NCBI GenBank assembly: GCA_030433255.1
Contig: JAUIMI010000002.1
Span: 65,177-129,176 of the forward strand
Length of the DNA: 64,000 nt
Source: a bacterium
GTDB lineage: Bacteria > Patescibacteriota > Minisyncoccia > Phycocordibacterales > UBA1006
Direction: 5' to 3'
Positions 12,678 through 64,000 of the stretch are shown one piece after another. The notes beneath the pieces are model-generated. The model saw only the letters and a list, made by a program, of their open reading frames with translations. It was not told where the DNA came from and made no database searches. How positions within the stretch are numbered: position 1 is the stretch's first letter; each line of letters opens with the position of its first letter. The position numbers and the translations under genes are program-made.

Positions 12678-12697
12678 ACGTACTTATTATACCAAAA

Positions 12698-34090: not shown

Positions 34091-34123
34091 AGTAGCAGTA
34101 TGTATGTGTATTATAATATGAAT

Positions 34124-34429: not shown

Positions 34430-34477
34430 TTATAAAAAACCTTTATATAAAAGGTTTTTTATAATATATACATAGAT

Positions 34478-34792: not shown

Positions 34793-34852
34793 AGGTGTAT
34801 CTCTATTTTTTTATACTATGTTCATAGATTGTAATTATGTTAGTATTTAATC

Positions 34853-35578
34853 ATGATTACTTTATGGAATACTTTTTTTTATAAACCACTTTACAACGCA
34901 CTTGTTTTTCTTGTTGATGTGGTACCAAATGAATCGCTATTTATTGCGGTAGTTATATTAACTATTATTGTTCGTTTTATTATTTCACCATTATCATATA
35001 AGGCACTTAAAACACAAATAAAAACAAAAGCCCTGCAACCAGAAATTAATAAAATCAAAGACACTATTTCTGATAAACAAGAACAAGCTCGAGCAACGTT
35101 TGCACTTTATAAGGAAAATGGAGTTAATCCTTTCTCAAGTTTCTTATTGATTCTTGTTCAATTTCCTATTATTATTGCTTTATATTGGGTGTTTCGAGAT
35201 GGAGGAGTTGAGATAGACCCAACGCTACTCTATTCATTTATTCCTGCACCTGAAAATATATCTTTAACTAGTTTTGGTATTAATTTAGCAGAAAAAAGCT
35301 ACCTCCTTGCTCTTCTTGCTGGTGTAACTCAATATATTCATATTTCTCGATCATCAAGTTTTAAACAAGTTGATACTGGGACTAAAAAAACCCAACAAGA
35401 AGAAATGATGGTAATGGTTGGTACCTCAATGAAATATACTATGCCTATTATGATTACTATTTTTGCTTATATTATTGGTGGTGCTGTTGCTTTGTATTGG
35501 GTAACATCAAATATTTTCATGATAGTACAAGAAACATTTATACAAAAGAAACTTGAAAATAAAAAACAAACCACATAG
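34853..35578 (+). CDS. yidC: membrane protein insertase YidC (short form)
   Basis: LQPEINKIKDTISDKQEQARATFALYKENGVNPFSS...QFPIIIALYWVF are conserved YidC/Oxa1 motifs; 241 aa. Confidence 0.75.
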   Translation: MITLWNTFFYKPLYNALVFLVDVVPNESLFIAVVILTIIVRFIISPLSYKALKTQIKTKALQPEINKIKDTISDKQEQARATFALYKENGVNPFSSFLLILVQFPIIIALYWVFRDGGVEIDPTLLYSFIPAPENISLTSFGINLAEKSYLLALLAGVTQYIHISRSSSFKQVDTGTKKTQQEEMMVMVGTSMKYTMPIMITIFAYIIGGAVALYWVTSNIFMIVQETFIQKKLENKKQTT

Positions 35579-35621
35579 TTTGTTTTTTATTTTGAATACA
35601 CAGCTATGTTATACTACAACT

Positions 35622-36086
35622 ATGAGCCCTGATATATTAAAAAAAGAAACCGAAACAATTCTTGGGATGATAAATATTTCATTTAAAGAAGTTGTAATTG
35701 TTATTGATAATGACATACGACTTACTATTATTTCAATTCGTGTACCAGGAAACGAAGAAGAATTGTTTACTGAAAACTATAATATATTAACGCGAGATTT
35801 AGGAACTATTATAAAACAACTCTTAGAAAAGAAGTATCATTTTTATAAAGATATTACCATAGATGTTAATGGTAATAATAGAAAATTTATAGAACAAGCA
35901 AAACAAAAAGCTCAAATAGCGGTAGAACGTGTTCAATTTTTTGATAAACCATATGAATTTGGGTACCTAAATTCATACGAACGAATGCTTATTCATTCAT
36001 ATTTAAAAAATGTTCCAAATATTATTACACAATCGGAGGGTGAAGGAAAAGACAGGCGTTTAATTATTAAAAAACAAACCATATAG
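35622..36086 (+). CDS. jag: Jag/KhpB-like RNA-binding protein (KH plus R3H)
   Basis: C-terminal R3H-like YERMLIHSYLKN...SEGEGKDRRLIIKK, and its position after yidC. The start is taken at the internal Met; the ORF track begins at 35553, overlapping yidC. Confidence 0.6.
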   Translation: MSPDILKKETETILGMINISFKEVVIVIDNDIRLTIISIRVPGNEEELFTENYNILTRDLGTIIKQLLEKKYHFYKDITIDVNGNNRKFIEQAKQKAQIAVERVQFFDKPYEFGYLNSYERMLIHSYLKNVPNIITQSEGEGKDRRLIIKKQTI

Positions 36087-37946: not shown

Positions 37947-38023
37947 AACTACTTATAGTATACTACATTCAGTATAATTGATTAATTTTTTTTATGAAAA
38001 AACCTTGAGTAATCTCAAGGTTT

Positions 38024-39673: not shown

Positions 39674-39907
39674 AAATGTACCTCTAGTATATCACTTTTT
39701 CTTTTTTCAAACGAAAAAAGAAACAAAAAAGTTTCCAAATTCATGGTTACTTTCTTAAAAATATAGCTCATGTACTATAATTTTAAAACTCGCTTCGCTC
39801 AAACATTAAAATTATTACGTACATATCACGTCATTTTTATAGAAAATAACCATAGATTTGAAATAAAAATAAAGTGCTCGCTTTCGCTCGTACTCTACAA
39901 TCTAAAA

Positions 39908-39936
39908 TAAAAAACAACTACCTAGTTGTTTTTTAT
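39908..39936. terminator. intrinsic terminator
   Basis: ACAACTA-cc-TAGTTGT plus T-run. Confidence 0.45.
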
Positions 39937-42047
39937 AATGTTAATGATTCTGTTACCTTATCATAAACTGAGAAATGCCAGTTTGTAGCATGGGTTACAT
40001 ATTTAATCATACATTTATCAATACCCCTGTTGAATAATTCATTTTGCATGCTTTCATAAGCAGATTGAGATTGTTGATTTGAAAATTCGAACTGAGCAGT
40101 TAAACCATTTTCATCAGCAGTTTTTATTATTTTTTCTACAGTATCAACATTATATTGAGCATTTTGCGTTGCAAGGTCTATACAAGAACCTAAATAATGA
40201 CATGGTGACCCATGACCCAGGAATGATGGACCAAAAGCTTCTGTAACACGCGTACTTATGTTTTGTGATTCTAGTGCATTATTAAAATTAATAATTTTTT
40301 GAGCAAAAGAAGACTCAACGTTATTTTGTATACTTGTTCCTTGAGGTGTTCCAGTATCTAAGTTTATTCCATTACCTTCAAGAGAACTTAAATTACCTCC
40401 TTGAGCCACTTGTTGTATTGTTGCAAGTTTATGTGTTGTTTGTCCTTTCCAATACCCTCTATGTTTTCTATTGTTACATATTTGTGTAGCAGGTGCGTTT
40501 GATACTGATAAGTTGGTACCATCACCATCAACTTGTGCTGGGTCTTCTACAATATTAATACTTACTTCTTCAATACCTTGTCCGAAATTAATTTCAAGCA
40601 ATTTCGGATTAATAGTTTTAAGGATAAGGAATATTCCTAATGCCAAAATAAGACCGGTTACTGCACTCATGATTCGTTTCTTTGCGGCACCTTTTGAGTA
40701 TATAGCTTCTGTTGTCATATATTCTACCCCAGCAACTACAATCATAATAACTGAAAGAACCATCAATACACCAAGAGCAATATTAAATAGTGATTGAATA
40801 TATTCACCTAATTGGAAATCTTTTAAATTTCTAATTGCAACTCTTTGTACGTTTCCATTTCCATCCACGACAGTTTCAACGTCACCAGACTGAGAGGTGA
40901 ATCCAGGAATAGGTGCTAGAAATTCGTAACAATTATCGCTATAACCTTCTGATTGGCTAATAAAACAAGGGCTATTTACATCATATGTTGGTTGTTGTGT
41001 TTGAGTGTATTGTGCCGAAGAACTTCCGTTTGAGTTTGTTGAACCCACTAGATTACTATTAATTCTTTGCCACTCAATATTATCACATCCATTTGGCCCA
41101 CAACGAAAATTTATAGCATTTTCATTATTTGGTGTATCTATTACATCATTATCATATTTTTTTATTTTTATACCTGGTAAATTTTCAGAACTTACTCGTA
41201 CAATTGCACCATAGGTACATGAATCAACTCCATCTGTTGAGCCAGTACAATCAGTATCTCCAGGTATATAGGTATTTTTTATTTCAGTTTCTCCTTGTGG
41301 AAGTTTTCCTTCATAACGAGCTTCTTCTGCTTCTTCATCTGCCCCATCATAATCCCATATTTCAACCGTAAATATAATTTCAGAAGCACAGTTGTTTGTT
41401 TGTATGTTTAATTTAACGTCAGATTGTTGCTCTGGGTTTAAAAAAGGTGTTGATGATTCATTTTGTGTACCATGTGGGACAAACGTAACATCTGTAATTT
41501 GACAGTTGTTAAGTAATGTTTGTGTTTGGTTTGCATTATAATTTCCGGTTACGCTAATTACTTCAAATTCTTGTTCCTCATCACAGTCCCCACATGTAGT
41601 CTCAAGTCGAGCTGCGTTTATTTCTGCATCGGTATTAAAAAAAGAAGATGTACCTTCTGGATCTGATGAAAGATTTTGTAGGTAAGCGGATTCAAAGGTT
41701 ACATAATACAAACAATTCTCATCGTCACAATATTCATTTCCAGGTTTAAAAGTAACAACAAGTGGTTCATTCGTTGAATTAAATTGATATCCATATTGTT
41801 CAAAAACATTATCGTCAACACCTCCACTTTCATCTTCCTCAATTATCAGAGTAAATGGTACTCCATCACATTGCCCGTTTTGATTAACATGTAGTTGTAT
41901 TGTTGAGTCTGGAGTAAGTTGACCTGATGGTTTTTCAAAGTAAATACTCTCAATTTGACAATTTTCTTGAGCAAAAATAGTTTGACTTCCAAATCCTCCA
42001 AAAACAAAAAGAGTAATAAATAAAATAGATTTAAGTAGTTGTTTCAT
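39933..42047 (-). CDS. secreted 704-aa protein with an internal VirB2/TrbC-like two-TM hairpin and a C-terminal Cys/His domain
   Basis: Signal peptide; FNIALGVLMVLSVIMIVVAGVEYM - basic loop SKGAAKKR - IMSAVTGLILALGIFLILK is a pilin-like hairpin; the C-terminus is GHGSPCHYLGSC... Confidence 0.4.
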   Translation of the reverse strand: MKQLLKSILFITLFVFGGFGSQTIFAQENCQIESIYFEKPSGQLTPDSTIQLHVNQNGQCDGVPFTLIIEEDESGGVDDNVFEQYGYQFNSTNEPLVVTFKPGNEYCDDENCLYYVTFESAYLQNLSSDPEGTSSFFNTDAEINAARLETTCGDCDEEQEFEVISVTGNYNANQTQTLLNNCQITDVTFVPHGTQNESSTPFLNPEQQSDVKLNIQTNNCASEIIFTVEIWDYDGADEEAEEARYEGKLPQGETEIKNTYIPGDTDCTGSTDGVDSCTYGAIVRVSSENLPGIKIKKYDNDVIDTPNNENAINFRCGPNGCDNIEWQRINSNLVGSTNSNGSSSAQYTQTQQPTYDVNSPCFISQSEGYSDNCYEFLAPIPGFTSQSGDVETVVDGNGNVQRVAIRNLKDFQLGEYIQSLFNIALGVLMVLSVIMIVVAGVEYMTTEAIYSKGAAKKRIMSAVTGLILALGIFLILKTINPKLLEINFGQGIEEVSINIVEDPAQVDGDGTNLSVSNAPATQICNNRKHRGYWKGQTTHKLATIQQVAQGGNLSSLEGNGINLDTGTPQGTSIQNNVESSFAQKIINFNNALESQNISTRVTEAFGPSFLGHGSPCHYLGSCIDLATQNAQYNVDTVEKIIKTADENGLTAQFEFSNQQSQSAYESMQNELFNRGIDKCMIKYVTHATNWHFSVYDKVTESLTL

Positions 42048-42109
42048 GTTGTTATTATAATATGTTTACTCTTTGATATAAAGTCGTAAAAATAAAAACA
42101 CCCTTTTGT

Positions 42110-43132
42110 TTAGAGTGTTTTTGGGTTAAATACCAGTTCTAAGTTTGCTTGAGATTTTTGTAATAACTTCTCAATCCCTTCTAGTGCAATATTTATATCA
42201 ACCGCACCAGCTTCTCCTCCTGATGTTATATATAACTCATTTTGTTTTTCAAAATCTTGTGGTGGCTGAGGGTTGTTATTAATACTCCAGTTTACAAACA
42301 GATCTATAAAATTAGGCTGAACCGATGACATGTATAATGGATGGAACGATAGTTTAACGGTATCACCATTAATAACATTATTAGTATTAAGCGCTTTATT
42401 TGTCATAAGCCTATCACCATTGAACTCATAAAAGAGAATTTTAGGTTTATATACATCTGTTGGAATATCAATAGTATTTGTAGCAAATGAGTTTTCACGT
42501 CTATCATTTGAAGTAACAGTAATTTTTTCATTTACTCCTAATGGGTCAGCGGTAAACTCAAATGATTGCTTCCCAAAACCTGATCCTGATTGTTGTCTCG
42601 TATAATTTCTGTCCCAATAATAAATAAGATTTGGTGCATCAGATGGTTCAATAAGTAGTGTTTCTGGTATAGCGGTGATTTTAATTTGGGATTGTTGCAT
42701 AGGAAGTGCCTTTCCTTTGTAAAAAGGTGGAACATAAGCATCAGTTACCTCCCACAGCAGGTTTACCTGTGATGGAGCAAAACGTAACTCTTTTCTAAAA
42801 ACTTGATTCTCGTATTCGACAACAGCTGTAATGTTCGTCACTTCTCCAGAATTACCTGTCGTAAAAATATAATCACGGTTACCATAATCAGCTGACTTTC
42901 TTTCTCCGTTTTCAAACCACGCAATGTAATAGTTATTAAGATTGAAACTATAACTATTAAGTTTTAGTTTTACCTCTTCGTTTGGTCCTGGTATTTTTGG
43001 TGTTGTTTCAACAAAAATATCATCAGCAGAATAGAGTTGAAAATTTTGCGCAACAGTTGTATTTGGAATTACAAAAAAGCTGAGAACCAGAACAGCAAAA
43101 ATAACTATATGATTTTTCCATACATGCAACAT
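42110..43132 (-). CDS. membrane-anchored secreted protein, possible VirB8/TcpC-like component
   Basis: N-terminal TM followed by a 300-aa extracytoplasmic domain. Assigned by position within the cluster only. Confidence 0.3.
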   Translation of the reverse strand: MLHVWKNHIVIFAVLVLSFFVIPNTTVAQNFQLYSADDIFVETTPKIPGPNEEVKLKLNSYSFNLNNYYIAWFENGERKSADYGNRDYIFTTGNSGEVTNITAVVEYENQVFRKELRFAPSQVNLLWEVTDAYVPPFYKGKALPMQQSQIKITAIPETLLIEPSDAPNLIYYWDRNYTRQQSGSGFGKQSFEFTADPLGVNEKITVTSNDRRENSFATNTIDIPTDVYKPKILFYEFNGDRLMTNKALNTNNVINGDTVKLSFHPLYMSSVQPNFIDLFVNWSINNNPQPPQDFEKQNELYITSGGEAGAVDINIALEGIEKLLQKSQANLELVFNPKTL

Positions 43133-43195
43133 ATTCTTTCTGTATTATACGGTATTCACAAAAAATCTACCAATAAAAAAACGCATACATGCGAA

Positions 43196-43867
43196 TTATT
43201 GTTCAAGTGTTGGAATATTTCTATGTGTTTCTCCTGGATTAAACATATTATAGAATACTTCAATGGCTTGTTCTGTGTTCAGTTGTTCGGAACGTACACC
43301 AAACCGTGATAAGCCACCTTTTACAATCGCAACACGTTGTTCTAGTTGACTTCGTTGCTCCTCAAATTTACGAGAATCTTCTTTAAATGAAGATTTTTTA
43401 GAACTCCCACCAATGAGTTCTTTTAGAATATTACCACCCTTTTTTTCTTGAGTACCAGTAAACGCACCTCCTGAGTATGGAATTACTACATAGAATTTTT
43501 TAGACATGATATTTACTGAATCAGTAAACCATTTAATAAATTCAATATACTCTTTGGTTTGTAGTCGAAGAAGTTCTTCTTGTTGTTGTTCGATTCGTCT
43601 TTCGAGTGTTAGGAGATATGGTTTTATATCATATCGACGTGATTGTACCGATATCTCAATAGGAAACTCTATTGAATTTAAAAAACCTTGGAATTGCATA
43701 ACAATTGCCTGTTGTTCATCTGGTGATTTTAGTGCGATATTGATTGCCGAAGCAAGTAGTATAGCTCGCAAACTTCCGTCTTCTAGTACGACAATACCGT
43801 CACGAATTTCTTTTACTGGAATAAAATCTTGAGTTCTTGGTCCTGTATATTTTTTAATATCTGCCAT
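43196..43867 (-). CDS. protein resembling the N-terminal domain of Gram-positive VirB4 ATPases (a split VirB4?)
   Basis: IRDGIVVLEDGSLRAILLASAINIALKSPDEQQAI...FPIEISVQSRRYDI resembles the TKDGRYVKILEV-PINF-LRS--EQ signature at the start of Tn916 Orf16/TcpF-type VirB4. Recalled from memory, no search run. Confidence 0.4.
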   Translation of the reverse strand: MADIKKYTGPRTQDFIPVKEIRDGIVVLEDGSLRAILLASAINIALKSPDEQQAIVMQFQGFLNSIEFPIEISVQSRRYDIKPYLLTLERRIEQQQEELLRLQTKEYIEFIKWFTDSVNIMSKKFYVVIPYSGGAFTGTQEKKGGNILKELIGGSSKKSSFKEDSRKFEEQRSQLEQRVAIVKGGLSRFGVRSEQLNTEQAIEVFYNMFNPGETHRNIPTLEQ

Positions 43868-43905
43868 ATATGTTTCTAGTATACCTTAATTATTATTTCA
43901 AATAA

Positions 43906-43934
43906 ATAAAAAACTACATCATGTAGTTTTTTAG
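43906..43934. terminator. intrinsic terminator
   Basis: AACTACAT-c-ATGTAGTT plus T-run. Confidence 0.45.
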
Positions 43935-44347
43935 TTATCATCAAAATCCAAAATATCCAAACTCCAAGCTAAATCTGAAATTTTTTGATGACCATCTTCT
44001 TTTGGGAGAGCTCCTTCTTGTGGGAAGGCAGCGTGTACTTGGGTTACGTCTTGTGCACCTGGTTCTGGTTCATGCTGTCTCCATAAATAAAATTTATTTG
44101 TAAAGGTGTATACAATAAATGACTCAACCATATGAATAAAAGGTCTTCCGTTAGGTTTGTAAAATACCAAGGCAAGAGAAAAAGCCGCAATAGGTAACCC
44201 TAATAGAATAGATGCAAAACTTGGTAATAATTTATGTAGTACAAAAATCATTCCTCCTCCACCAACAAGATATAACGCCTGTTTAAAAGTAAAAGGTCCA
44301 AATAATTTGTCAGGAATATTAATAAATTGAGGTACCTCAAATCTCAT
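43931..44347 (-). CDS. PrgI/VirB3-like small two-TM protein
   Basis: N-terminal VPQFINIPDKLFGPFTFKQALYLVGGGGMIFVL matches the fGLT-RQ pattern of the PrgI family; 138 aa; immediately upstream of the VirB4-N-like ORF, as in Tn916 (orf17-orf16). Confidence 0.4.
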   Translation of the reverse strand: MRFEVPQFINIPDKLFGPFTFKQALYLVGGGGMIFVLHKLLPSFASILLGLPIAAFSLALVFYKPNGRPFIHMVESFIVYTFTNKFYLWRQHEPEPGAQDVTQVHAAFPQEGALPKEDGHQKISDLAWSLDILDFDDN

Positions 44348-44394
44348 ATCGTTATTATATCATGTTCAAAATATTTAGATAAAAAAGAAGACCT

Positions 44395-45279
44395 CTAATC
44401 TTCTTTTGTTAAATGTTCTAAGAATGTACCTTCTTCTCGTATTTGCTCGTTTTCAGATAATGAAGCTTCTATGGTTTCTGTTTTTGCAGAGAAAGGGTTT
44501 TCCAAAATATGTTTATCAATGGTAGAAAATTCATAATCACCTTGACCTAAATCAGGAAATTGTTTTCTGGGTTTGTCTGTAAATATATCGTCAGGTGTAT
44601 TATGATGTTGTGTTTTAATAATTGAGGTGTTAGTGCGGTGTCCGGTTATTCCTCTTAAATCTTTGGTATCGATTGGTTCTTGGTATGGGTTTTGTGTGTG
44701 TTCAGGTTTTTGATTTGGCTCAGGTATATCATCTGTAATAGTTTCGGTGTGGGTGGTTTCGTGATCTTTGATATTTACCTCGTTTAAAATTGCTGATACT
44801 TCATCATGTAAATCATTGTCAAAAATACGTGGCTCAGGTTCATCTACGAGATGTACTCCTTCTGAACTTAGGATGTTTTTTAGTTCATGATGTTCAATTG
44901 GTTCTTGGTATGGATCATCTGATATTATTTCATCGTGGTTCTCGGTAGTTGTTTCATTATCAAAATTATTTTTACTAAATGCACGTTTTTGTAATTGAAG
45001 AAATATTCGAGAATTTGCTTCGTCTACTAATGAAGCTGCAAGTTGTTTTGAAAAACCGAGTTCACTTACAAGGTTATGTTCATACTGTTCTGCAGGTATT
45101 TTCCCAAGAATTACTAAGAGTGTTTGGTGCCGAAATTCGTCTGCATCGTCTATTTGCATATTGTGTTCATGAGCAATATCAAGTATTTCTTTTGCCCAAT
45201 CAAAAGTAATTACAGCATTTTTAATATTATCAGGAAGTGCTGCAATTGATTGTTGAATTTCTGCATTCGAAAGTTTCAT
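44395..45279 (-). CDS. highly acidic cytoplasmic protein with PYQEPI repeats
   Basis: 294 aa, rich in Asp and Glu; DDPYQEPIEHHELK and QNPYQEPIDTKDLR repeats. Confidence 0.35.
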   Translation of the reverse strand: MKLSNAEIQQSIAALPDNIKNAVITFDWAKEILDIAHEHNMQIDDADEFRHQTLLVILGKIPAEQYEHNLVSELGFSKQLAASLVDEANSRIFLQLQKRAFSKNNFDNETTTENHDEIISDDPYQEPIEHHELKNILSSEGVHLVDEPEPRIFDNDLHDEVSAILNEVNIKDHETTHTETITDDIPEPNQKPEHTQNPYQEPIDTKDLRGITGHRTNTSIIKTQHHNTPDDIFTDKPRKQFPDLGQGDYEFSTIDKHILENPFSAKTETIEASLSENEQIREEGTFLEHLTKED

Positions 45280-45330
45280 ATCAGTAGTATACCAAATATT
45301 ATAAGAAAAAATAAAAACCTATTTAGGTTT

Positions 45331-47637
45331 TTATTTTTTATCAGCCTCTTGAGGTTTTGCACCAACTTTACCTTCCCGTATTCTTTGAGCTGTTTTTTCA
45401 TCTTTTGTTTCGTAATCTTTAGCAACTTTTTCTCTGGCTATATTATGATTATCTTTTTCAATATTCTTAAGTCTCTCAACTTGTTTCTTGGCTGTTTGTT
45501 TTTCGAAGTCTTTTTTATCTTTTTCAAGATCAGAAAGACCATCTTCCAAAGCGGTTATATTTGCCTGAGCATAGGATGCCAGTGCTGTGTTACCTTCCGC
45601 ATTTGCTTTTGCAAAAATACGTTCTTCTTGCTTAATTTCTTTTTGTTTATCTTTAATATCCTTATCGTAGGCTTTTATAGCTTTGTCTTCAAATTGAGCT
45701 CTACTACTTCCTGCAGGAATATTTGCTACATTTCCACCGCCCATACTTGGAGGTAGTGGAGCGCCATCAATTTGCATATTTACTGTTGGCTCTGCACTAA
45801 CATTAACCACCACAGATTGTGACATTTCTTTTCGTATGTCTTTTGCAAACTGTTCAAGTGTTCGTTCTTTATCATCAATATCTGAATCAAGTTTTTGTTT
45901 CGCTAGTTTTGATTCTTCGGTTTTGATTTCTGAATTAGCATTTGTATCTTTTACTTTTTGTTTAGATTCTTCAACCTCTCTTTGCCAATCAGCAGCTGTT
46001 TTATTTTCTTTGATTTCAGTCTGCGCTTCTTCCTGAACTCGTTTTACTTTTGCAGCCTGTAGGTCAGCATATTCATTTCCTCCGCCCATAGAACCAAGTA
46101 ATGATTTACCATCACCTTCAATATGGCCAAGTAATGATTTACCTGTAACTTTTCCTGCATATTTCGCAGCGTCATCACCCATAATTGATTTTAGAACTTT
46201 ATTTCGTGTTGGGTCTATTCTTGTTGCTTGTAGGTATTTCCCATGTTCTTTAACTGCTGAACCAATAGTGCTCAACCCTTTACCATATTTACCTTTTGAT
46301 AGGTACTTTGCTCCTTGCCCTACACCTTGTGCTGCTGCTCCACCAACACGTAACCCTGTACCAACAGCTGCTGCTCCACCGGTTGCAGCGATAGCTGCTC
46401 CAGCAACAAGTGCTCCTGTAACACCCTGAATACTTCTTGTTGCCATGCTTCCTAACTCACCAGCCATTGAGGTACTTATTTTTTTTGTGAGAAATAACAA
46501 ACCACCAACAATAATAAATGGTATATAAGCCTTGAGGATGCTTTCTAATATACCTTCTCCTGGGCCTGGTTGAATAGATGCAAGGAAACCTTCATTTCCA
46601 AGAAAACTAATAACAAGGTATAGGAAAAACATATATACAGGAGCAAGAAACGCTAAGCTTATTAATTCAGGAAGCCATTTGTTAAATCCTATGTATGATT
46701 TGTTTTGTAGGCTTGGTACCACAATACTTGCAAAAGCAACAGGGGCTAATATTGCAGAAACCATTAAACCAATTGCTCTACCAACAAAAACAAGAATCAT
46801 ACTAATAAATAACCAAATGAGTAATATGTTTAATATTCCTGCTCCTGTGATGATAATAAAGGCTTGCAGTGCCCCAGAACCACTTGCGTTAACTATTTGT
46901 TGAGGATTTATTTTCCCAGCAATAGCAATCGAGAGATTTTTTGAATCTTGAGGAATAATAGATTGCGCTAGGCTAGAGAGACTACTTTCTCCTGAACCTA
47001 ACCCTTCGGTATCATTAGCTATTTGAGTAGTATCCGCATTCGTATTTGTTGCTGCTGTGTTGTATGTATTCGCTGTTGCGTCTATTTTGTTGTATAAGGT
47101 GTGCGCTAGAATATTTGACCCATCAATAATTGCATAGGTCATAAATAAACTAAAATTAATAATCAACGCTATAAGGATTGTTTTTACGAGAGTTTTTTTT
47201 GTTCCTCCATCATCGGAACCAAGAACCATTTTGAATGCTACAACTAGTAATGCAAAAATAAACACAATATTAGTAAAGTCACGTAATATTTCCCAACCAG
47301 CTTCGATAAGACCTGATCGATAGAATTGTGAATCAATTGATAGGAATATAAATATATCCAACATGACACCAATTAATACAACAACTATTTGGGTAAAATA
47401 GAAAATTATAAGTTCATAGAATGACAATAATCCTTCTGATAATTGACACCCTATTCCACTTGCACCAAAAAAACCAGTGTCACAATTAAGGTTTATAGCA
47501 TAAGCCGTATTTTCTGTTATCGAAACTATCTGTTCTCCTGATTGAATAGATTCGATATCGTTGATTCCAATACTTATAGGTAAAAGAAAAACGAGTATTC
47601 CTAATAATACTGTAATTGCTTTTTTAGATAAAAACAT
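45331..47637 (-). CDS. VirB6/TrbL-like polytopic membrane protein with a Gly/Ala-rich linker and a long charged coiled-coil C-terminus
   Basis: Signal peptide, at least six TM helices (aa 70-400), GALVAGAAIAATGGAAAVG segment, then about 300 aa of Lys/Glu-rich repeat. This architecture is like Tn916 Orf15 and TrbL. Confidence 0.45.
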   Translation of the reverse strand: MFLSKKAITVLLGILVFLLPISIGINDIESIQSGEQIVSITENTAYAINLNCDTGFFGASGIGCQLSEGLLSFYELIIFYFTQIVVVLIGVMLDIFIFLSIDSQFYRSGLIEAGWEILRDFTNIVFIFALLVVAFKMVLGSDDGGTKKTLVKTILIALIINFSLFMTYAIIDGSNILAHTLYNKIDATANTYNTAATNTNADTTQIANDTEGLGSGESSLSSLAQSIIPQDSKNLSIAIAGKINPQQIVNASGSGALQAFIIITGAGILNILLIWLFISMILVFVGRAIGLMVSAILAPVAFASIVVPSLQNKSYIGFNKWLPELISLAFLAPVYMFFLYLVISFLGNEGFLASIQPGPGEGILESILKAYIPFIIVGGLLFLTKKISTSMAGELGSMATRSIQGVTGALVAGAAIAATGGAAAVGTGLRVGGAAAQGVGQGAKYLSKGKYGKGLSTIGSAVKEHGKYLQATRIDPTRNKVLKSIMGDDAAKYAGKVTGKSLLGHIEGDGKSLLGSMGGGNEYADLQAAKVKRVQEEAQTEIKENKTAADWQREVEESKQKVKDTNANSEIKTEESKLAKQKLDSDIDDKERTLEQFAKDIRKEMSQSVVVNVSAEPTVNMQIDGAPLPPSMGGGNVANIPAGSSRAQFEDKAIKAYDKDIKDKQKEIKQEERIFAKANAEGNTALASYAQANITALEDGLSDLEKDKKDFEKQTAKKQVERLKNIEKDNHNIAREKVAKDYETKDEKTAQRIREGKVGAKPQEADKK

Positions 47638-53882: not shown

Positions 53883-53953
53883 GCGGGCGTAGTTTAGTGG
53901 TAGAATATCTGGCTTCCAACCAGAGGACGAGAGTTCGATTCTCTCCGCCCGCA
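53883..53953 (+). tRNA. tRNA-Gly (anticodon UCC)
   Basis: GCGGGCG acceptor, D-arm AGTGGTAGAAT, anticodon loop CTTCCAA, T-arm GAGAGTTCGATTCTCTC, and a promoter-like TTGCAT-N17-TAATAT upstream. Confidence 0.85.
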
Positions 53954-53960
53954 CACCAGA

Positions 53961-54968: not shown

Positions 54969-56230
54969 ATGAATTTGAAAAGAATATTTTTACTTTTAAC
55001 ACTCCTACTAATCCCACAATTAACAAACGCCGCATTAACCATAAACACTATTGATTACAGTAGTGAAGACGCAATTGATATTGTTTTTATTGCTGATGGT
55101 TTTACCACTGCAGAACAATCAACATATGAATCATATGTAGCTCAGGCTGTTGGGTATCTTTTTGATAATCCTCCTTTTGATGCTGAATCAAATAAGTTCA
55201 ATATATATTCCATTCCTACTGTTTCAAATGAATCAGGTATTTCTGTTCAGGGAGGTATTAGTGTTGATACTTTTCTTAAAACACATTTAAATGAAAATAA
55301 CTTACCTCGACTTACTGGATTACCAGATGAATTCCGTTCTTTTTTAAGAAATGAATTAAAAAAAGTCTTTAAAAAGAAAATCTATCCCATTATTATTATG
55401 AACACTGGGGTGTATGGAGGTTCTGGTGAACTCAATAGGGAACCACGGTTTATGAGTGTTACTCAGGTTACACTAGATACAGAATACCATGCCTTTAGAG
55501 AATTTCTTGTTCATGAATTTGGACACTCTTTTATAGATCTTGCTGACGAATATGGAGGTGATTGTTCTTCAAGTGAAGTGGATGATTGGGATATTGATCA
55601 TTATGATAAAAAAATGTTACACAAGATGCAACTAATAATAGAAAATGGGATGAGCTTGTTACTTCACCACAATATATTTTAGGAGCAAATTACTGTGATA
55701 CTGATTGGTATAGAAGTAGCGCAAGCGATATTATGCGTAGTGTTGGGTCTGGTAATATTCATAATGAGTTAGGACAAATTCTTGCTGAAGAAAGAATTGA
55801 GGAAGATATTGATTATAATACTGATGTTGTTTCTTTTCAGAATAATGGATTATTTAATTTGTCATCATATCGTAATCAAAATATACGTATTCATGCTGAT
55901 GAAATAAGTGTAAGAAAGGATGTTAAGTGTAAAAATCTTTACGTGGCGGAAGATAGTCATCTTATTTTAGAACAAGGGTCAAGAATTATCTGTGATACTG
56001 TTGATATTTTAGGGAGTGTAAGTTATGTAAAGAAAAATAATTCTTCTGGTGTTTCCCTTCGGTTTGGGTGTAAAGATCCAAATGCAAAAAACTACACTCG
56101 TTTTGCGCGACATAGGCAATCAATGTGTGTGTATGGCTATCAAGATGCTCGTCCTCCACACTTTATTCTAAGTTCAGATAAGCTATTATCGGTAAATGAC
56201 CATGGCCATGACCATGAACACCTAAGATAG
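54969..56230 (+). pseudogene. secreted HExxH zinc metallopeptidase (M64/IgA-peptidase-like) disrupted by a frameshift at an A7 tract
   Basis: Signal peptide MNLKRIFLLLTLLLIPQLTNA; HEFGHSFIDLADEY motif. The frame breaks at A7 (55608-55614) and the protein continues in another frame (…NRKWDELVTSPQYILGANYCDTDWYRSSASDIMR…), ending with the shared CKDPNAKNY...RHRQSMC motif. Confidence 0.45.
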
Positions 56231-56436
56231 TTAGGTGTTTTTTGCTATAATAAAAAAGTATGAACGGGATATTTTATAATGTTTTTGTTGGTTTTTTATT
56301 ATTTTTTAGTAGTGTTGTAACGGTTTTTGCTTCTGATTTTACAGAATTAAATATTATTGGTGATACCGGTTGGACGTGAGGTGTTGATGCGGGTGATATT
56401 GATGGTGATGGTGACATCGATGTTACAGCAGGTAAT

Positions 56437-57867
56437 TTGTCCGGAACAAGTCGCGTTTGGTTAAATGATGGATCAGGGGCTTTTACTGAATTTCCTCTTA
56501 CAGGTATAACTTCTGTTTCTCATTTAAATATTGTTGATATTGATGGTGACGGAAATCAGGATATTTTGTTAAGTCGTGTTGGTGGTTCTTCATTAGTTGG
56601 ATTTTTTAATGATGGTGCCATGAATTTCACACAACGAACTCTCTATGCTTCCTCGGGAGCATTATATGAATCACAGGTTGGTGATATTGATGGTGATGGT
56701 TTTAATGATATTTATGTTACTGAGCAACAGTCCGGCGGTAGATCGAATCTTCTACTTATTAACGATGGAAGCGATAATTTTATTGTAAATAATATTGCAT
56801 CTGATACCGCTGCAAGTATTACTGTTAGAGTAATAGATATTGATAATGACGGTGATTTGGATATTTATCGCCCTAGTTATAACGCAAGTCAAAACACCCT
56901 TTGGATAAACGACGGTCTCGGGAATGGAGGAGCCTCATTTAGTGCATCTAATATTACCGGTGATACTGGTAGTGTCTATCAAACTCAGGTAATAGATATT
57001 GATAATGACGGTGATTTGGATATTTATAATGTGGTTGCCCCTGGTCAAAACACCCTTTGGATAAACGACGGTCTCGGGAATGGAGGAGCCTCATTTAGTG
57101 CATCTAATATTACCGGTGATACTGATTCCGGAGCATCTGCAATAATAGATGTAAATGCTGATGGCTATCTGGATATCTATAGTTCGCTTTATGGCGCACA
57201 AAGTTATCTTTGGATAAATGATGGATTAGGCAATGGTGGTGCTTCGTTTGCTAATGATGCTATACCAGGTAATTCACCAAGCACTGTTTTTGCAACATCG
57301 GGTGATTTCGATGGTGATGGTATTACTGATCTGTATGTCGGAGTTTATGCAGGTGGGCAAAATCTCCTTCTTATTAATGATTTTGAACCACCTGAACCAC
57401 CTTCAAGTTCAAGCAGGTCATCTTCTGGTGGTATTGGTTCTATTAGATATGTATGTAAAGATAAAACAGCATCCAACTATAATGGAACACGTTTTGCTCG
57501 TCATAAACAATCAAAATGTAAGTTTGATACAGATATTCAAGACATAAACACGTCGATTGGTAATGTATGCACCATACCTTTTGATGATTATTATCAAAAG
57601 GGTGACTCTCACGATAATGTTGCTGTTATCCAATCATTTCTTAATTCACATTTAAATATTGATTTATTTATTGACGGTATTTTCGGGAATCAGACTCATG
57701 ATGCCGTTTCTCAGTTTCAGGATATGTACAAAACAGATATTCTTGTTCCTTGGGGACTTTCATCTCCTACAGGGCGTTGGTATCAATCAACACGTAAAAA
57801 AGCAAACGATATTCTCGGGTGTTCAGAAGGTATGGTTACCTTAGATAATGGAGTTATTCTTAAATAA
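56437..57867 (+). CDS. FG-GAP/VCBS-repeat beta-propeller-like surface protein with a C-terminal Cys motif plus PG-binding domain
   Basis: Repeated DIDGDGxxDI / DIDNDGDLDIY motifs; a 156-bp tandem in-frame duplication; C-terminus homologous to the 8232..9230 protein. An upstream in-frame signal peptide (56260-56376) is cut off by TGA at 56377. Confidence 0.5.
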   Translation: MSGTSRVWLNDGSGAFTEFPLTGITSVSHLNIVDIDGDGNQDILLSRVGGSSLVGFFNDGAMNFTQRTLYASSGALYESQVGDIDGDGFNDIYVTEQQSGGRSNLLLINDGSDNFIVNNIASDTAASITVRVIDIDNDGDLDIYRPSYNASQNTLWINDGLGNGGASFSASNITGDTGSVYQTQVIDIDNDGDLDIYNVVAPGQNTLWINDGLGNGGASFSASNITGDTDSGASAIIDVNADGYLDIYSSLYGAQSYLWINDGLGNGGASFANDAIPGNSPSTVFATSGDFDGDGITDLYVGVYAGGQNLLLINDFEPPEPPSSSSRSSSGGIGSIRYVCKDKTASNYNGTRFARHKQSKCKFDTDIQDINTSIGNVCTIPFDDYYQKGDSHDNVAVIQSFLNSHLNIDLFIDGIFGNQTHDAVSQFQDMYKTDILVPWGLSSPTGRWYQSTRKKANDILGCSEGMVTLDNGVILK

Positions 57868-57896
57868 AAAGAACTACTTATAAGTAGTTCTTTTTA
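57866..57896 (+). terminator. intrinsic terminator
   Basis: A perfect 20-bp palindrome GAACTACTTATAAGTAGTTC plus T5. Confidence 0.55.
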
Positions 57897-58078
57897 TTTA
57901 TATTTATATAAACAAAAAGAGCCCTTAAGATAAGGTCTCTTTTTGCAGGATGTTAATGACTCAAAAAATTATCGTTGGATAACTCGCGTCACTCACAATA
58001 TATATAATACACGAACTAATTTTTTTGTCAAGTTTTATTTTATTCTATATTTCTTACCATAGAAATAAAGAAAAAAAT

Positions 58079-58537
58079 ATGAAACATGCAATACATTCAA
58101 AGCATATTACTCTTGTTGAGCTAAGAGATTTGTGTAGCGAATTAGGTATTACTTCTGTGTTTGAGTATAAACTTAAGTATGCTGCTCGTGCTCACGAAGA
58201 CCTTGTGTATATGCCTAATGTTACATACAAGAAAGAATGGGTCGAACAAGGTGGATGGGATTTTCTTTTCTCCTCAATTAAAAACCAAGGAAAACCAAGA
58301 AGAACCAAGAAAATTAGTGTTGGTAGTGTTAAGAGTAAAAAGAACGTTAAAACACAAGCAACAATGCCGCCAGTAACTACTTCAGTTGTGGAATATGTTG
58401 AACATAAGAATTACAATGCAAAAGGTAGGGGTGAGGATGGCTATTGGAATATTAAAGCACTAGCAAAAAAAGTCCGCAAATATAACATTCAAACACCTGA
58501 TGTTTATTATAAATACGCATCGTTGTTCACTGATTGA
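58079..58537 (+). CDS. hypothetical basic protein (152 aa)
   Basis: Start taken at the internal Met MKHAIHSK; Lys-rich C-terminus. Confidence 0.35.
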   Translation: MKHAIHSKHITLVELRDLCSELGITSVFEYKLKYAARAHEDLVYMPNVTYKKEWVEQGGWDFLFSSIKNQGKPRRTKKISVGSVKSKKNVKTQATMPPVTTSVVEYVEHKNYNAKGRGEDGYWNIKALAKKVRKYNIQTPDVYYKYASLFTD

Positions 58538-58692
58538 CCTCGTAATCCAGATATTCATTATGAAAATTGGACTTCATGGGACTCTTTTTTGTTAGATCCT
58601 ATAAGTATTTTTTCAAAACAATTAGAATTCAACGAAGATTAAAAATAAAACCATTGTTATTTAGCAATGGTTTTTATGGTATAACACTATAT

Positions 58693-59264: not shown

Positions 59265-59771
59265 TTGAGCAATGGGAGTGCTATACTCTTATATATGAGA
59301 ATTTCTAATCCTTACAAGTACTCTAATGGTTATATTTTTCTACCATTAAGAAATTTAAACCTTGATAATCTTCACCCTACTATTGTTTTATTTGGTGATA
59401 ATTATTATTTAAAATCAGAGTTCCACGTAAGTTTAATATGTGTAAAAGAGGACCTTCGGGAAAACCCGCTCATTACTGAGGCTAATATTGTTGACATTTT
59501 TAATGGTTTTGTCGGGAAAATACCGCTTCAAAAAGTTGAGTACCTTGATGAGTACCGTATAGCCACCCACCCTGATGGTAGGAAAAGTATTATTCAAAAA
59601 GTAAATATTCGTGGTGTTGAAGGGTTATTTACTGAATTACGGAAAAAATTACATATTACTATTAATACTCAGCCGCTACATGTAACCATATATACCCTAC
59701 AGGGAGGTAGAGGAATTGGCATTAATAATATTGAAGATTATAATAACACCATTGAGATACGTTTTAGGTAG
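59265..59771 (+). CDS. hypothetical protein (168 aa)
   Basis: ORF between tRNA-Pro and the palindrome-rich yraN locus. Confidence 0.35.
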   Translation: MSNGSAILLYMRISNPYKYSNGYIFLPLRNLNLDNLHPTIVLFGDNYYLKSEFHVSLICVKEDLRENPLITEANIVDIFNGFVGKIPLQKVEYLDEYRIATHPDGRKSIIQKVNIRGVEGLFTELRKKLHITINTQPLHVTIYTLQGGRGIGINNIEDYNNTIEIRFR

Positions 59772-59924
59772 TGTTTCACGGTTTCTCAAAATAGTTTTTT
59801 GTTAAAATCTAAATTATTAGTAATTTCTCATAAAAAGGTTGTTTCATATGAAACAACCTTTTTATATGAGATGAAGTTACATACCAATTAACATGTTTCA
59901 TATGAAACATGTTAATGAGGAGGG

Positions 59925-60317
59925 TTAGAATATGTTTTTGATTCGTTCTATTTTGTGTTTAACGTTTCTTTTATCTATATAAACAAGATACACATCAAAT
60001 TGTGTTTCATATGAAACATTATGATCTTCTATGTATTTAAACATGGTTTTTTGGAATCTTTTAATTTTTTCACGTGTAACATTTTCCGCTGGATTATATG
60101 TTGTTTCACGTGAAATATTATTTGTGTTTTCACATGAAACACTTTTTACCTCAATAAAATAAATTATATTTGTTTTCTCTGCTATTATATCTATTTCTCC
60201 TGATCGTGCTGTGTAGTTTCTCTCTATTATTTTATAGTTATTATTTTTTAACCATTTTGCACATATTTCTTCGCCAAGTTCACCGGTTTTTTGTGTTTTT
60301 GAAGTAAAACGTTTCAT
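59925..60317 (-). CDS. yraN: YraN/UPF0102-family PD-(D/E)xK nuclease-like protein
   Basis: GEIDIIAEK...IYFIEVKSVS core and C-terminal FDVYLVY align with YraN (GGEIDLI...VFVEVRYR...FDVVAF); 130 aa. Confidence 0.65.
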   Translation of the reverse strand: MKRFTSKTQKTGELGEEICAKWLKNNNYKIIERNYTARSGEIDIIAEKTNIIYFIEVKSVSCENTNNISRETTYNPAENVTREKIKRFQKTMFKYIEDHNVSYETQFDVYLVYIDKRNVKHKIERIKNIF

Positions 60318-60761
60318 ATGAAACTATTTTATCATGATATATGTTTCAACGGCATGAGTGTTTCATATGAAACACTCATAAGTAGTCCTTAGAAATATAT
60401 AATACCTCTATATTATTTCCTTTGTCTTTTATAAAAGACAAATTATAAATGTATATACCTTGTCTTTTATCCCCTTTATACCCGAAGTTATCCACAGGTT
60501 GCTTAATTCAAGTTTTCTGTTCCTTTCTATCTTATTATGTTTTCAGCTAATTCTACTATATTTTCAATTAGATAGTGTTATTTGATTGGACAAAATATTG
60601 CGTCTTTTTTTATTTTGTTGTTTGTTTTCTTGATTTTTTTGATAATTTGTTTTATTTTTACTTGTTTCCTATATTTTTTATTATTTAAAGTAATTTTATT
60701 ACTGAATACTTGATTTAAATAGAGAAATATCTATACTTGGTTCAGCTTTATTAAAGTTTTT

Positions 60762-60833
60762 CCACCTGTGGTGAAATGGATATCACAACGGTCTTCGGAA
60801 CCGTTATTCCAGGTTCGAGTCCTGGCGGGTGGA
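60762..60833 (+). tRNA. tRNA-Arg (anticodon UCG)
   Basis: Acceptor CCACCTG/CGGGTGG (one G-U pair), D-arm GTGAAATGGATATCAC, anticodon stem-loop ACGGT-CTTCGGA-ACCGT, T-arm CCAGGTTCGAGTCCTGG. Confidence 0.7.
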
Positions 60834-60931
60834 CATAAAAGAAAAAAGAACAAGGTTTCTCTTGTTCTTTTTTCTTGCGCTATTTATATAAATTAGTATT
60901 GTTAAAATTAAATCTTAAAACTAAATATATT

Positions 60932-61606
60932 ATGCCAAGTATTGTTGTTTACGAAAAAAATACCTTTTCTTTTTTAAAGAGCAAATTACACAATCTGGGT
61001 TTTAGAATGTTATCTCAAAAAGAAGTAGATACTATATTTAAAACCCTTGATTTTAAGGAACCAAGAAATCAAGAGACTGATCCGCGAAAAAATATTCCGT
61101 TTCAGTTTGAATCTAATTATCTTAAAATTACTGTATGGACAAGTTTTCATAGGGATACCTATACAACGACACCTGGTCATTGTGCTTGGGTTATTGTTCA
61201 ATTAGGAGATGTAAGAATTTGGTCATCTCCTCAAATTCGTAGGACTAAGAATTTTTTAGCAAGACTTATTCATTGGGTAACTATTATGAAAGTTTTTGCT
61301 GAAAACAGACCTCTCTGTAAGCAATGTTCTAAAAGAATGCAAAAAACCTTAGACAAGAAAGGGAATAGAAAATGGGTTTGTACTCAAATACATCATCATG
61401 GTAATAGTCAAAAGGTATACCAGTCATGGAACTATTTTAAGCAATTTCTTGATTCTACAGAGATGAAGTTTTTTGCTGAGTGGGAGCGACAGCAAAATAG
61501 ATATGTAAAATGGCGTAAGGACTCAGGATTGCGTGTTCATAAAATCGGAAGTACTCGTAATTCTTGGGAAGTACAGAAACGAGAGAATCTTGTTTCTGTG
61601 GTATAA
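60932..61606 (+). CDS. hypothetical protein with a CxxC...C/H-rich Zn-ribbon-like segment
   Basis: CKQCSKRMQ...WVCTQIHHHG. The start is uncertain; the ORF track begins at 60875. Confidence 0.35.
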   Translation: MPSIVVYEKNTFSFLKSKLHNLGFRMLSQKEVDTIFKTLDFKEPRNQETDPRKNIPFQFESNYLKITVWTSFHRDTYTTTPGHCAWVIVQLGDVRIWSSPQIRRTKNFLARLIHWVTIMKVFAENRPLCKQCSKRMQKTLDKKGNRKWVCTQIHHHGNSQKVYQSWNYFKQFLDSTEMKFFAEWERQQNRYVKWRKDSGLRVHKIGSTRNSWEVQKRENLVSVV

Positions 61607-61640
61607 CTTAAAAAAACCACTCAATTGAGTGGTTTTTGTT

Positions 61641-63398
61641 TTACGCTAGGTATTTATGAATATCTTCTTTCGTCATTCCTACTTTTTTACCTGGGTTAAA
61701 AATATTTTTTGGATCCATGATATTTTTAATTTTTGTAAATATACTCATCATTTCGCTCCCAAACATTTGTGGTAGAAATGGTGTCCGGACAATTCCATCA
61801 TTATGTTCCGCAGTAATTGAACCATTATATTCCAAGGCAAGCGCATATACCTTCTCAGAGATTTCAACTATGTGGTCTTTGTTTTGCTGCTTATTCATGT
61901 CAGCAAGAGGTATGATGTGGAAATTTCCATTCCCAAGATGCCCTGCAATAGTGTACATAAACTCATTTTTGTATTCATCAAGAATAGTAATGAGCCGTGG
62001 TAGGTATTCAGGTAGGTATTCAGGGTTTACTGCAATATCATCAATAAATGGAGCTGTTCGAGTTCCTGACCCTTCGGCACGTGATTTAATTGAATGTTCG
62101 GTGAGGAGTTTAAAACTGTCGTGTCTAAAGTCCCAATACTTTTGAGAGGCTCTCCCTTTTACAATGAATGATTTTAGATTTGGTATTTCTGATTGTAAGT
62201 CTTCAAATTCCTTAAGTACTTCTTGATGAACTTTTTCTGGATTATTGTCTGCACTTTCAGCAAGAACAATAAATTTAGGTACACCACCTGTTATCGCCAT
62301 CCAAAATTCAGGTAAGAATCTTATTGAATACCGAATTGCTTGGAAAAATCCCTTATCTTTGATGAAATCTTTAAAGAATTTTACTCCAATTTTAAAAGTG
62401 TTATCGTCATAGAGCTCTATGGTATCAAGGTCGTGTTTTTTTAATACATTAACAATTTTTGGTAACTGATGAATATCATTTACAAATGAAACAATCATTT
62501 CTTCTTTGTTTTCATGTTCTGTTAGTTTATATGTCACCTCAGATATAATTCCTGTGGTACCTTGTGCACCAACAATAAGTTTTGTAAGGTCAAATGTTCC
62601 ACTTCCTTTTTCAAATGCTTCGATTGATGGAGCATCAATAACATCCCATACTAGATATCCTGCCGAGTTTTTTGTTGTTTGAGGTTTTTTTGATTGAATG
62701 AGCTCCCAATTATTTTTTATGAGTTCATATATATCTCGGACAATATCAGAGAGAAAGGTTTTTTTTGTGATGAGTTTGCGCAATTCATCATAGTTTAATG
62801 GCTCAAGAGTGTATTGATTTCCATCCGCAAGAATAACCTTTAGTTTTTCTACAAAGTGTTTATTCTGGCCATACTTTAGTGATTTTTCACCAGCTCCGTT
62901 ATTAGCAACCATTCCGCCAATCGCACAGAGTTTTCGTGAGGCAGGGAAGGTTGGCATGAGCATATTATGTTTCATTGTTTCTTTCTCAAAAGGAATATAT
63001 TTTGTTCCTGGCTCTACCGTTGCCTTACCGGTAATAGGATATGAAAAATTTTCACGCGTCGATTGTGTTCCAAAATCTCCAAGTTCAATGCTCCCAATGC
63101 TATTCATATATTTTGTTACATCAACAATAATAGAATGATTCAGTGACCCTCCAGACATACCGGATCCAGCGGCTCGAGCGGTTAATGACAATTTCTTTGG
63201 AGTATTCTTTGCATTGTATTCATTAACGTACGAAACAAGGTGCTCTAAATCTTGTGCGTGTTTCGGGTACACCACCATATCTGGCATAATTTTAAACAAA
63301 GACCAATCAGTGCTGTGGTTAACTAATTCTTGAGTATCTATAGTTACATCACCTTCTAGTATTTTTGAAAGGTCTATTTTGATTTCATCGTAATTCAT
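61641..63398 (-). CDS. FAD-linked oxidoreductase (FAD_binding_4/PCMH; D-lactate dehydrogenase or GlcD-like)
   Basis: VVYPKHAQDLEHLVSYVNE...TARAAGSGMSGGSL FAD-binding fold near the N-terminus; 585 aa. Confidence 0.55.
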   Translation of the reverse strand: MNYDEIKIDLSKILEGDVTIDTQELVNHSTDWSLFKIMPDMVVYPKHAQDLEHLVSYVNEYNAKNTPKKLSLTARAAGSGMSGGSLNHSIIVDVTKYMNSIGSIELGDFGTQSTRENFSYPITGKATVEPGTKYIPFEKETMKHNMLMPTFPASRKLCAIGGMVANNGAGEKSLKYGQNKHFVEKLKVILADGNQYTLEPLNYDELRKLITKKTFLSDIVRDIYELIKNNWELIQSKKPQTTKNSAGYLVWDVIDAPSIEAFEKGSGTFDLTKLIVGAQGTTGIISEVTYKLTEHENKEEMIVSFVNDIHQLPKIVNVLKKHDLDTIELYDDNTFKIGVKFFKDFIKDKGFFQAIRYSIRFLPEFWMAITGGVPKFIVLAESADNNPEKVHQEVLKEFEDLQSEIPNLKSFIVKGRASQKYWDFRHDSFKLLTEHSIKSRAEGSGTRTAPFIDDIAVNPEYLPEYLPRLITILDEYKNEFMYTIAGHLGNGNFHIIPLADMNKQQNKDHIVEISEKVYALALEYNGSITAEHNDGIVRTPFLPQMFGSEMMSIFTKIKNIMDPKNIFNPGKKVGMTKEDIHKYLA

Positions 63399-63495
63399 AT
63401 TCGTAGTATATCATTTTTAATACGCTTTCTTGTATTGATACATATAATAAAAAAGATTTATAGCGTAATAAAAAGTACATGGGTATACTATAGAC

Positions 63496-64000
63496 ATGAA
63501 TAAACTAAACAGAAAAGAGATAAAAAAAATATTTGATGAACTTGATATTGATCTTTCTATTGGAGTGAAAGATTCAGATTTAGAAAACCGAAAAAAACAA
63601 TTTGGGACGAACAAGATAGAGCCGAAAAAAAGAGAAAATATATTGATACTTTTTCTTAAAGAATTAAAAAACCCCTTGAATGCTATTCTTATTCTGGCAG
63701 GTATTTTAACTCTTTCTCTGGGTGAACATTTAGATATGTTCGTTATTTTTGCAGCTGTTTTGGTTAACGTATGTATTACTCTCTTTCAAGAGTCACGAAC
63801 AAATAAAACATTTCAAAAATTACATACTTCAAAGGTGTTTGATGTTCTTGTTTTAAGAAATGGACAAAAGGAGGTTGTTCAGGCTGGTGAACTTGTTGTT
63901 GGGGATATTGTATACCTTAACGCTGGAGACAAAATCCCAGCAGATGTACGAGTTATTGAGTACTCTGAGTTTATGGTGGACGAATCATCTTTTACCGGTG
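63496..64000 (+). CDS. P-type cation-transporting ATPase (Ca2+/Mg2+ type), N-terminal part; continues beyond the window
   Basis: Cation_ATPase_N-like region (ELKNPLNAILILAGILTLSLG), TM1-2, and an actuator-domain start VVGDIVYLNAGDKIPADVRVIE... Confidence 0.75.
   Translation, partial: MNKLNRKEIKKIFDELDIDLSIGVKDSDLENRKKQFGTNKIEPKKRENILILFLKELKNPLNAILILAGILTLSLGEHLDMFVIFAAVLVNVCITLFQESRTNKTFQKLHTSKVFDVLVLRNGQKEVVQAGELVVGDIVYLNAGDKIPADVRVIEYSEFMVDESSFTG

Follow-up and report, generated by a model that had tools for sequence, protein, structure and literature searches.

UGA is leaky in bacteria that use the standard code, near-cognate tRNA-Trp (tryptophan) being able to read it, usually at a low level. 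Reduced, AT-rich symbiont genomes carry pseudogenes that arose by homopolymer frameshifts and nonsense mutations (poly-A lesions in insect endosymbionts, for example), and transcriptional slippage is known to rescue lesions of this kind in longer tracts. Within the class Minisyncoccia, reassignment of UGA to Trp has been reported in the family JAKLIH01 and in the genus GCA-2747955 (PMC13092985; 10.64898/2026.05.24.727570). In these lineages UGA stands for Trp in many alignment columns and is not used at gene ends; prfB is missing, and a tRNA-Trp(UCA) is usually present. tRNA-Trp variants with a 4-bp anticodon stem have also been discussed (PMC13092985). Here, we consider a gene for an FG-GAP repeat protein interrupted by an in-frame TGA at 56377, in a stretch of 64,000 nucleotides from contig JAUIMI010000002.1 of a member of this class (hereafter the window, to which all coordinates refer unless a locus is named). 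The available data suggest that the TGA is probably a recent TGG>TGA nonsense allele by which the gene was inactivated, within a decaying run of three accessory genes.

The layout of the gene is as the original prediction described it. On the forward strand, the ATG at 56260 opens MNGIFYNVFVGFLLFFSSVVTVFA, a putative signal peptide, followed by SDFTELNIIGDTGWT. The TGA (56377-56379) comes next, in frame with this ATG, and the frame then stays open as GVDAGDIDGDGDIDV... until the TAA at 57865-57867. If the TGA were translated, 535 sense codons would be read from the ATG; the open frame beyond the TGA comprises 495 codons. The open reading frame of 476 codons that starts at TTG 56437 merely begins at the first start codon past the TGA. 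The NCBI gene call (P0001) begins at this TTG, and the database protein is a mis-start produced by the TGA. The features of the gene are the following.

56243..56251, forward strand: extended -10 element TGcTATAAT, 8 nucleotides before ATG 56260.
56260..56331, forward strand: putative signal peptide of 24 residues ending VFA/S, recognized by eye and from orthologue N-termini.
56332..56376, forward strand: first 15 mature residues, SDFTELNIIGDTGWT, leading into the first repeat, from alignment with orthologues.
56377..56379, forward strand: in-frame TGA at a Trp site, from the homologue alignment; the same codon is found in an independent assembly (L007).
56380..57867, forward strand: protein body with FG-GAP/VCBS repeats, a Pro/Ser-rich linker, a Cys motif and PG_binding_1, ending with TAA, from Pfam.
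57448-57519, forward strand: Cys motif YVCKDKTASNYNGTRFARHKQSKC, from the sequence.
57607-57729, forward strand: PG_binding_1, a marginal Pfam match (24.0 bits against a cut-off of 23).
57861..57900, forward strand: terminator-like hairpin overlapping the TAA stop, from a hairpin search.

Read by eye, the signal peptide (MNGIFYNVFVGFLLFFSSVVTVFA/S) has a hydrophobic core and an n-region without basic residue. The orthologue N-termini are likewise hydrophobic and end AYA/V and AFA/I, and a comparable region is found in all homologues. The first 15 mature residues match the orthologue pattern xxFTxxEIAGDTGWT. From residue 46 onward, Pfam recognizes seven repeat stretches in the read-through product (PF13517 FG-GAP_3, E=1.8e-34; PF01839 FG-GAP, E=4.9e-15). 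Each repeat has a DxDxDG loop of the calcium-binding type (DIDGDGD, DIDNDGD and the like), the Asp and Gly columns of which are invariant across the alignment. PG_binding_1 is also annotated in the homologues P0005 and P0007. To judge by these domains, the read-through product would be a secreted, wall-associated beta-propeller protein. It would carry ...GDTGWTWGVDAGDIDGDGD... across the TGA site, and SDFTELNIIGDTGWTWGVDAGDIDGDGDIDVTAGNLSGTSR is a tryptic peptide coded downstream of 56377. As had been predicted, a product begun at TTG 56437 has no export signal; it also lacks the first DxDxDG loop.

The nature of the lost codon can be read from the homologues. These were drawn from a collection of 5.8 billion proteins, and the eight full-length ones that were aligned (520-700 residues) are all uninterrupted. 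The TGA position is occupied by Trp in six of the eight; Tyr and Arg are found in the remaining two, which are the most distant. Thus, GDTGWT-stop-GVD in the window corresponds to GDTGWTWGVD in P0003 and P0004, to AWSWGVD in P0005 and to SWGV in P0007 and P0008. At the corresponding site of the protein's own later repeats, Tyr, Ile or Tyr is found. The Trp of the homologues indicates that the ancestral codon was TGG, one G>A transition away from TGA, and the ancestral residue at position 40 is Trp. Within the collection, the truncated form occurs only in P0001 and P0002, both from this population. The option of a recent nonsense mutation, raised in the original prediction, is supported by these full-length homologues with a sense codon at the site; the idea that orthologues might start downstream with a signal peptide of their own did not hold.

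The closest comparison is with two orthologues from Paceibacteria, P0003 (GCA_013558355.1) and P0004 (JGI 3300056827), which are 54-60% identical to the window protein. The three genes have the same architecture, namely a putative signal peptide, seven DxDxDG-loop repeats, a Pro/Ser linker, the motif CKDxxAxNY...RHxxxxC and a PG-binding domain. A gene for an M64-like peptidase is the upstream neighbour in the loci of P0003 and P0004, as it is in the window. Two lesions distinguish the window copy: a TGA where the orthologues have a Trp codon (residue 40), and a frameshift in the M64 partner. Relative to the intact orthologues, a stop that replaces Trp40 is a disabling lesion, and both flanking genes are disrupted as well. 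These neighbours and the element that lies between the M64 gene and the FG-GAP gene are as follows.

54969..56230, forward strand: M64-like zinc metallopeptidase with a signal peptide (MNLKRIF...) and an HEFGH motif (Pfam Peptidase_M64, E=5e-20).
56216..56240, forward strand: terminator-like hairpin closing the M64 gene, a 10-pair stem followed by TTTT.
58079..58642, forward strand: next gene downstream, a two-repeat protein to which no function is assigned, from homologue search and alignment.

The M64 gene is split into two frames by the loss of one nucleotide, an A7 tract standing at 55608-55614 where A8 is needed. A tblastn search with the intact 425-residue orthologue of locus L004 returns two segments, in frames +1 and +3, joined at ...DHYDKK/KNVTQD; the frame break lies at GATAAAAAAATG. 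At this place the orthologues read AAT AAG AAA AAT (N-K-K-N) and AAT AGA AGA AAT (N-R-R-N). In L004 and in L006, a related metagenome contig of 636 kb, an intact M64 gene (419-425 residues) directly precedes the FG-GAP gene, whereas the wider gene neighbourhood of the window differs from both. The gene downstream contains a second in-frame TGA (58535-58537), inside the conserved motif F[TS]D[W/F]PxNPxxYYxxWxGW. Its homologues (173-181 residues) align across this TGA and on through ...PRNPDIHYENWTSWDSFLL, with Trp in three and Phe in two at the site. The segment 58079-58537 is the only TGA-terminated gene of the window, and the TGA is not its natural end. A 91%-identical variant of this gene, P0133, has a frameshift within an A-rich stretch. 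Three accessory genes in a row are thus disrupted while about 50 other genes of the window are intact, which suggests an accessory module under loss.

A short Cys-flanked motif, xCKDxxAxNYxxFARHxQSxC, is common to the M64 peptidase (56063-56128) and the FG-GAP protein (57448-57519). It is kept in all homologues of both proteins, ahead of their C-terminal parts, and has no Pfam family; possibly it serves both proteins for anchoring or interaction. The disrupted region sits between tRNA-Gly(UCC) (53883-53954) and tRNA-Pro and tRNA-Arg(UCG) (59.2 kb; 60762-60834). Independent Logan assemblies of the organism come to an end at one edge of it (about 54.9 kb), a sign that the region may be a variable island.

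One of the Logan contigs, L007, was assembled independently from run SRR15635848. Over 54984-56968 it is 99.85% identical to the window (three mismatches in 1985 bases, no gaps) and it has the identical ...GGTTGGACGTGAGGTGTT..., that is, the same TGA. The strain represented by L007 is slightly diverged, with an in-frame deletion of one 52-residue repeat unit and a diverged 3' end. The dN/dS ratio between the two copies is without power, the differences being bunched in the last 20 or so codons, probably at a recombination edge. Since an independent assembly of a slightly diverged strain has the TGA too, it is not an assembly or sequencing error, an option that had been considered and is now essentially excluded; the TGA at 56377 is a genuine allele at the level of the population. 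It is true that an artefact hiding a TGG would require a single base only, given the orthologous Trp codon, and that the lesion of the M64 gene lies in a homopolymer, a typical site of errors. L007, from another run, shares both the TGA and, in a gapless alignment, the A7 tract, and an artefact is therefore extremely improbable.

The question of where translation begins is linked to the expression signals of this genome. Of the 39 genes that have a TATAAT match of at least 5/6, 15 carry the hexamer 6-8 nucleotides before the ATG, and no Shine-Dalgarno (SD) sequence is found across the window. This suggests that most mRNAs of the genome are leaderless. A TATAAT or TATACT box, often with TG upstream, precedes many ATG codons of the window (for example 12686-12691, 25159-25164 and 56246-56251). 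As a -10 box directly before the ATG is usual in this genome, the ATG at 56260 can be taken as the real start. Before TTG 56437, neither a promoter nor an SD-like element is found.

From these data, the following course of events can be proposed. At residue 40, a G>A transition would have made TGA out of TGG, a conserved Trp codon. Translation, starting at the probably leaderless ATG 56260, would produce the signal peptide and 15 further residues and then terminate. The body of 495 codons, without an export signal and without obvious initiation, would either not be made or be made in traces through the leakiness of UGA, in which case the original Trp would be put back. The mutation would belong to the run of three adjacent disrupted genes, as part of a module being lost. 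That translation terminates at 56377 and that the function of the gene is lost are points that we infer.

Whether the TGA acts as a stop depends on the code of the organism. The window has a GC content of 33% and carries dnaA-dnaN, rnpA-yidC, polA, ruvABC, a class A penicillin-binding protein gene and type IV pilus and type IV secretion-like genes. The closest relatives of its DnaA (71-86% identity) come from metagenome-assembled genomes labelled Paceibacterota, Pacebacteria or "Patescibacteria group", and the organism belongs to the Patescibacteria, class Paceibacteria/Minisyncoccia. Among 54 long open reading frames of the window, 44 end with TAA, nine with TAG and one with TGA. In the coding frames (about 18,800 codons), 171 TGG are found versus two TGA, both at Trp-type sites. 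According to the original prediction, the standard code applies elsewhere in the window. The other 52 or so genes have no internal TGA; the window itself, however, holds no natural TGA stop, and these genes have none at their ends.

Such a stop is found just outside. Contig L117, from the same genome, matches 59836-64000 with 100% identity and continues for about 9.4 kb past the end of the window. This extension includes, some 9 kb from the window end, a gene for a XerC/D-type integrase that ends ...TQIYTHITDKQLREVHKKFHNKENQ-TGA (...HNKENQ-TGA); the orthologue in L097 ends ...HGKQRQ-TAA at the homologous residue. In addition, relatives that fall inside the near clade in the DnaA tree have TGA at conserved C-termini, in RuvB (L016), in a Jag-like protein and RnpA (L015) and in a PrgI-like protein (L017). 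A scan in the manner of Codetta was also made, with TGA translated as X, BLAST between loci and removal of conserved off-frame open reading frames. In the cleaned result, which covers about 270 kb of housekeeping loci from the near clade, no in-frame TGA is bridged by homology. Taken together, the TGA at the conserved stop of the integrase, the TGA stops of relatives, the ratio of 171 to two and the housekeeping scan argue for a standard code in which, as far as is visible, TGA is still used as a rare stop. The low use of TGA stops proved to be a property of the wider clade: genuine ones make up 4.6% in the remainder of the near clade and 3.2% in its sister clade, against 8.9% and 17.9% in more distant Paceibacteria. 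A lineage-wide recoding (genetic code tables 4 or 25) had first been suggested by the 44/9/1 distribution of stops; it is weakened by the scarcity of TGA stops throughout the wider clade and by the true TGA stops of the relatives and of the integrase.

The tRNAs of the window and of L117 are specific for Lys, Gly, Pro and Arg only. No tRNA(UCA) is found in these 74 kb, and no tRNA-Trp in any locus searched. A tblastn search for release factors RF1 and RF2 gave no match in the same loci, a result that is uninformative for the genome. On a metagenome contig of distant Paceibacteria (L109, 3618-3691), ARAGORN reports a tRNA with anticodon UUA ("tRNA-Stop"), at a place taken by tRNA-Lys(UUU) in related loci. 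The call may reflect a wrongly parsed anticodon loop, or else a tRNA that reads UAA.

Several observations weigh against a plain nonsense mutation and raise the possibility that UGA is translated as Trp to a useful extent, the gene being functional. This could occur if tRNA-Trp, as a near-cognate, reads the codon strongly while RF2 is weak or seldom required, or if UGA>Trp reassignment is at an early stage with little use so far (incipient table 4). Accessory genes under weak constraint would then be the first to tolerate TGG>TGA changes. A third in-frame TGA belongs here. In L006 (18583-19122, reverse strand), a gene for a SET-domain methyltransferase has a TGA at 18741 where the post-SET motif SKWECxCGSxxCR calls for an almost invariant Trp; the motif continues in an open frame, and about 100 homologues, of about 169 residues, are uninterrupted. 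All three in-frame stops (56377, 58535 and that of the SET gene) are therefore TGA, two at strongly conserved Trp and one at a Trp/Phe position, with intact frames downstream. No gene split by TAA or TAG is found in the window, L004 or L006. Given the codon usage, TGG>TGA should be responsible for no more than 2-9% of nonsense mutations, depending on the mutation model; this expectation is set against a small sample of three cases, in a comparison made post hoc. Genuine TGA stops number zero in about 168 genes of the subclade of the window (the window with loci L008-L010, L023, L088-L094, L108 and L112), as compared with 9-18% in more distant Paceibacteria of like GC content. The FG-GAP gene shows no other decay: its promoter and terminator are in place, 74 of the 78 columns invariant in the family (eight homologues) are retained, and no second lesion is found within it. 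The UGA>Trp reassignments reported for JAKLIH01 and GCA-2747955, of the same class, point the same way.

These observations have to be set against the integrase of the same genome, with its TGA at a homologous stop position, and against the interspersed relatives (L015, L016 and L017) in which TGA is a true stop. Moreover, TGA accounts for only about 1% of Trp-type codons (two versus 171 TGG) despite the GC content of 33%, in-frame TGA is absent from the housekeeping genes of the clade, tRNA(UCA) is absent from the 74 kb, and recoding would leave the frameshift of the M64 gene unexplained. Useful decoding as Trp is the most serious rival explanation, although the less likely one, and we consider rather unlikely an ambiguous or incipient stage in which TGG>TGA changes accumulate in weakly constrained genes (those for the FG-GAP and two-repeat proteins and, in a relative, the SET protein) while a few ancestral TGA stops survive. 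Of the readthrough as "Gly or Trp" that had been envisaged, the Gly part (table 25) is ruled out by the Trp of the homologues; the Trp part has gained some circumstantial support, in a genome that appears to use TGA as a stop. Programmed recoding at 56377 alone, by selenocysteine insertion or a dedicated readthrough signal, would account for a UGA, the selenocysteine codon, followed by 495 open codons. The homologues, however, have Trp and neither Cys nor selenocysteine. The 84 nucleotides 3' of the TGA, where a structure like a selenocysteine insertion sequence had been suggested as a check, fold no better than shuffled sequences (z = -0.86; 41 of 200 shuffles equal), and an Rfam scan of the window returns four tRNAs only, with nothing at the TGA. 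The four TGA contexts (TGA-G, TGA-C, TGA-G and, at the natural stop, TGA-A) have nothing in common either, and recoding of this kind is hardly credible. Finally, the downstream frame could be expressed alone as a cytoplasmic protein from TTG 56437 or a later internal start, as the NCBI gene call P0001 has it. This would remove the signal peptide and the first DxDxDG loop from a protein whose remaining domains work outside the cell. Besides the missing promoter and SD-like element, starts in this genome are mostly ATG behind a -10 box, and all homologues start upstream. An internal start is accordingly very improbable. A nonsense allele that inactivates the gene thus remains the preferred explanation, and the intact promoter, terminator, reading frame and conserved residues indicate that the lesion is recent.

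Two other features of the window may be mentioned. A type IV secretion-like cluster (36096-47637), which encodes TraG/VirD4-like P-loop, TraC-like and PrgI-like proteins together with large unannotated proteins, adjoins the dnaA-dnaN / rnpA-yidC origin region (31407-36086). A pair of 30-bp inverted repeats (59830-59916), which gave reverse self-matches in the alignment of L117 with the window, separates the convergent genes 59265-59771 and 59925-60317 and is probably a bidirectional terminator.

At face value, one population of a host-dependent, ultra-small bacterium would be losing the gene for a surface protein along with that for the protease partner, an ordinary event. The wider interest of the locus is circumstantial and stems from the fact that Minisyncoccia have reassigned UGA to Trp at least twice and that the present subclade has nearly purged its TGA stops. 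If RF2 were lost or weakened, such genomes would be rare snapshots of stop-codon capture. An incipient stage, if true, would be a natural intermediate toward the table-4 code of other Minisyncoccia.

Compared with JAKLIH01 and GCA-2747955, the genome of the window belongs to the same class, is low in GC, has in-frame UGA at conserved Trp positions and, at the level of its subclade, nearly lacks TGA stops. It differs from them in having, across the window, only two in-frame TGA versus 171 TGG, both in the accessory island, and a TGA at the conserved stop position of the integrase. As for the natural leakiness of UGA, it would re-insert the ancestral Trp and could explain the persistence of TGG>TGA alleles; such alleles may persist longer since ordinary leakiness restores the wild-type residue. 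Leakiness is usually low, however, and no sign of a raised level is seen here. With the pseudogenes of symbionts, the comparison differs in one respect, the poly-A lesions rescued by slippage having longer tracts whereas the A7 tract here is short. Otherwise, the likeness extends to a small, AT-rich genome, to the loss of one nucleotide in a poly-A tract beside a G>A nonsense mutation, and to genes that are intact in all other respects.

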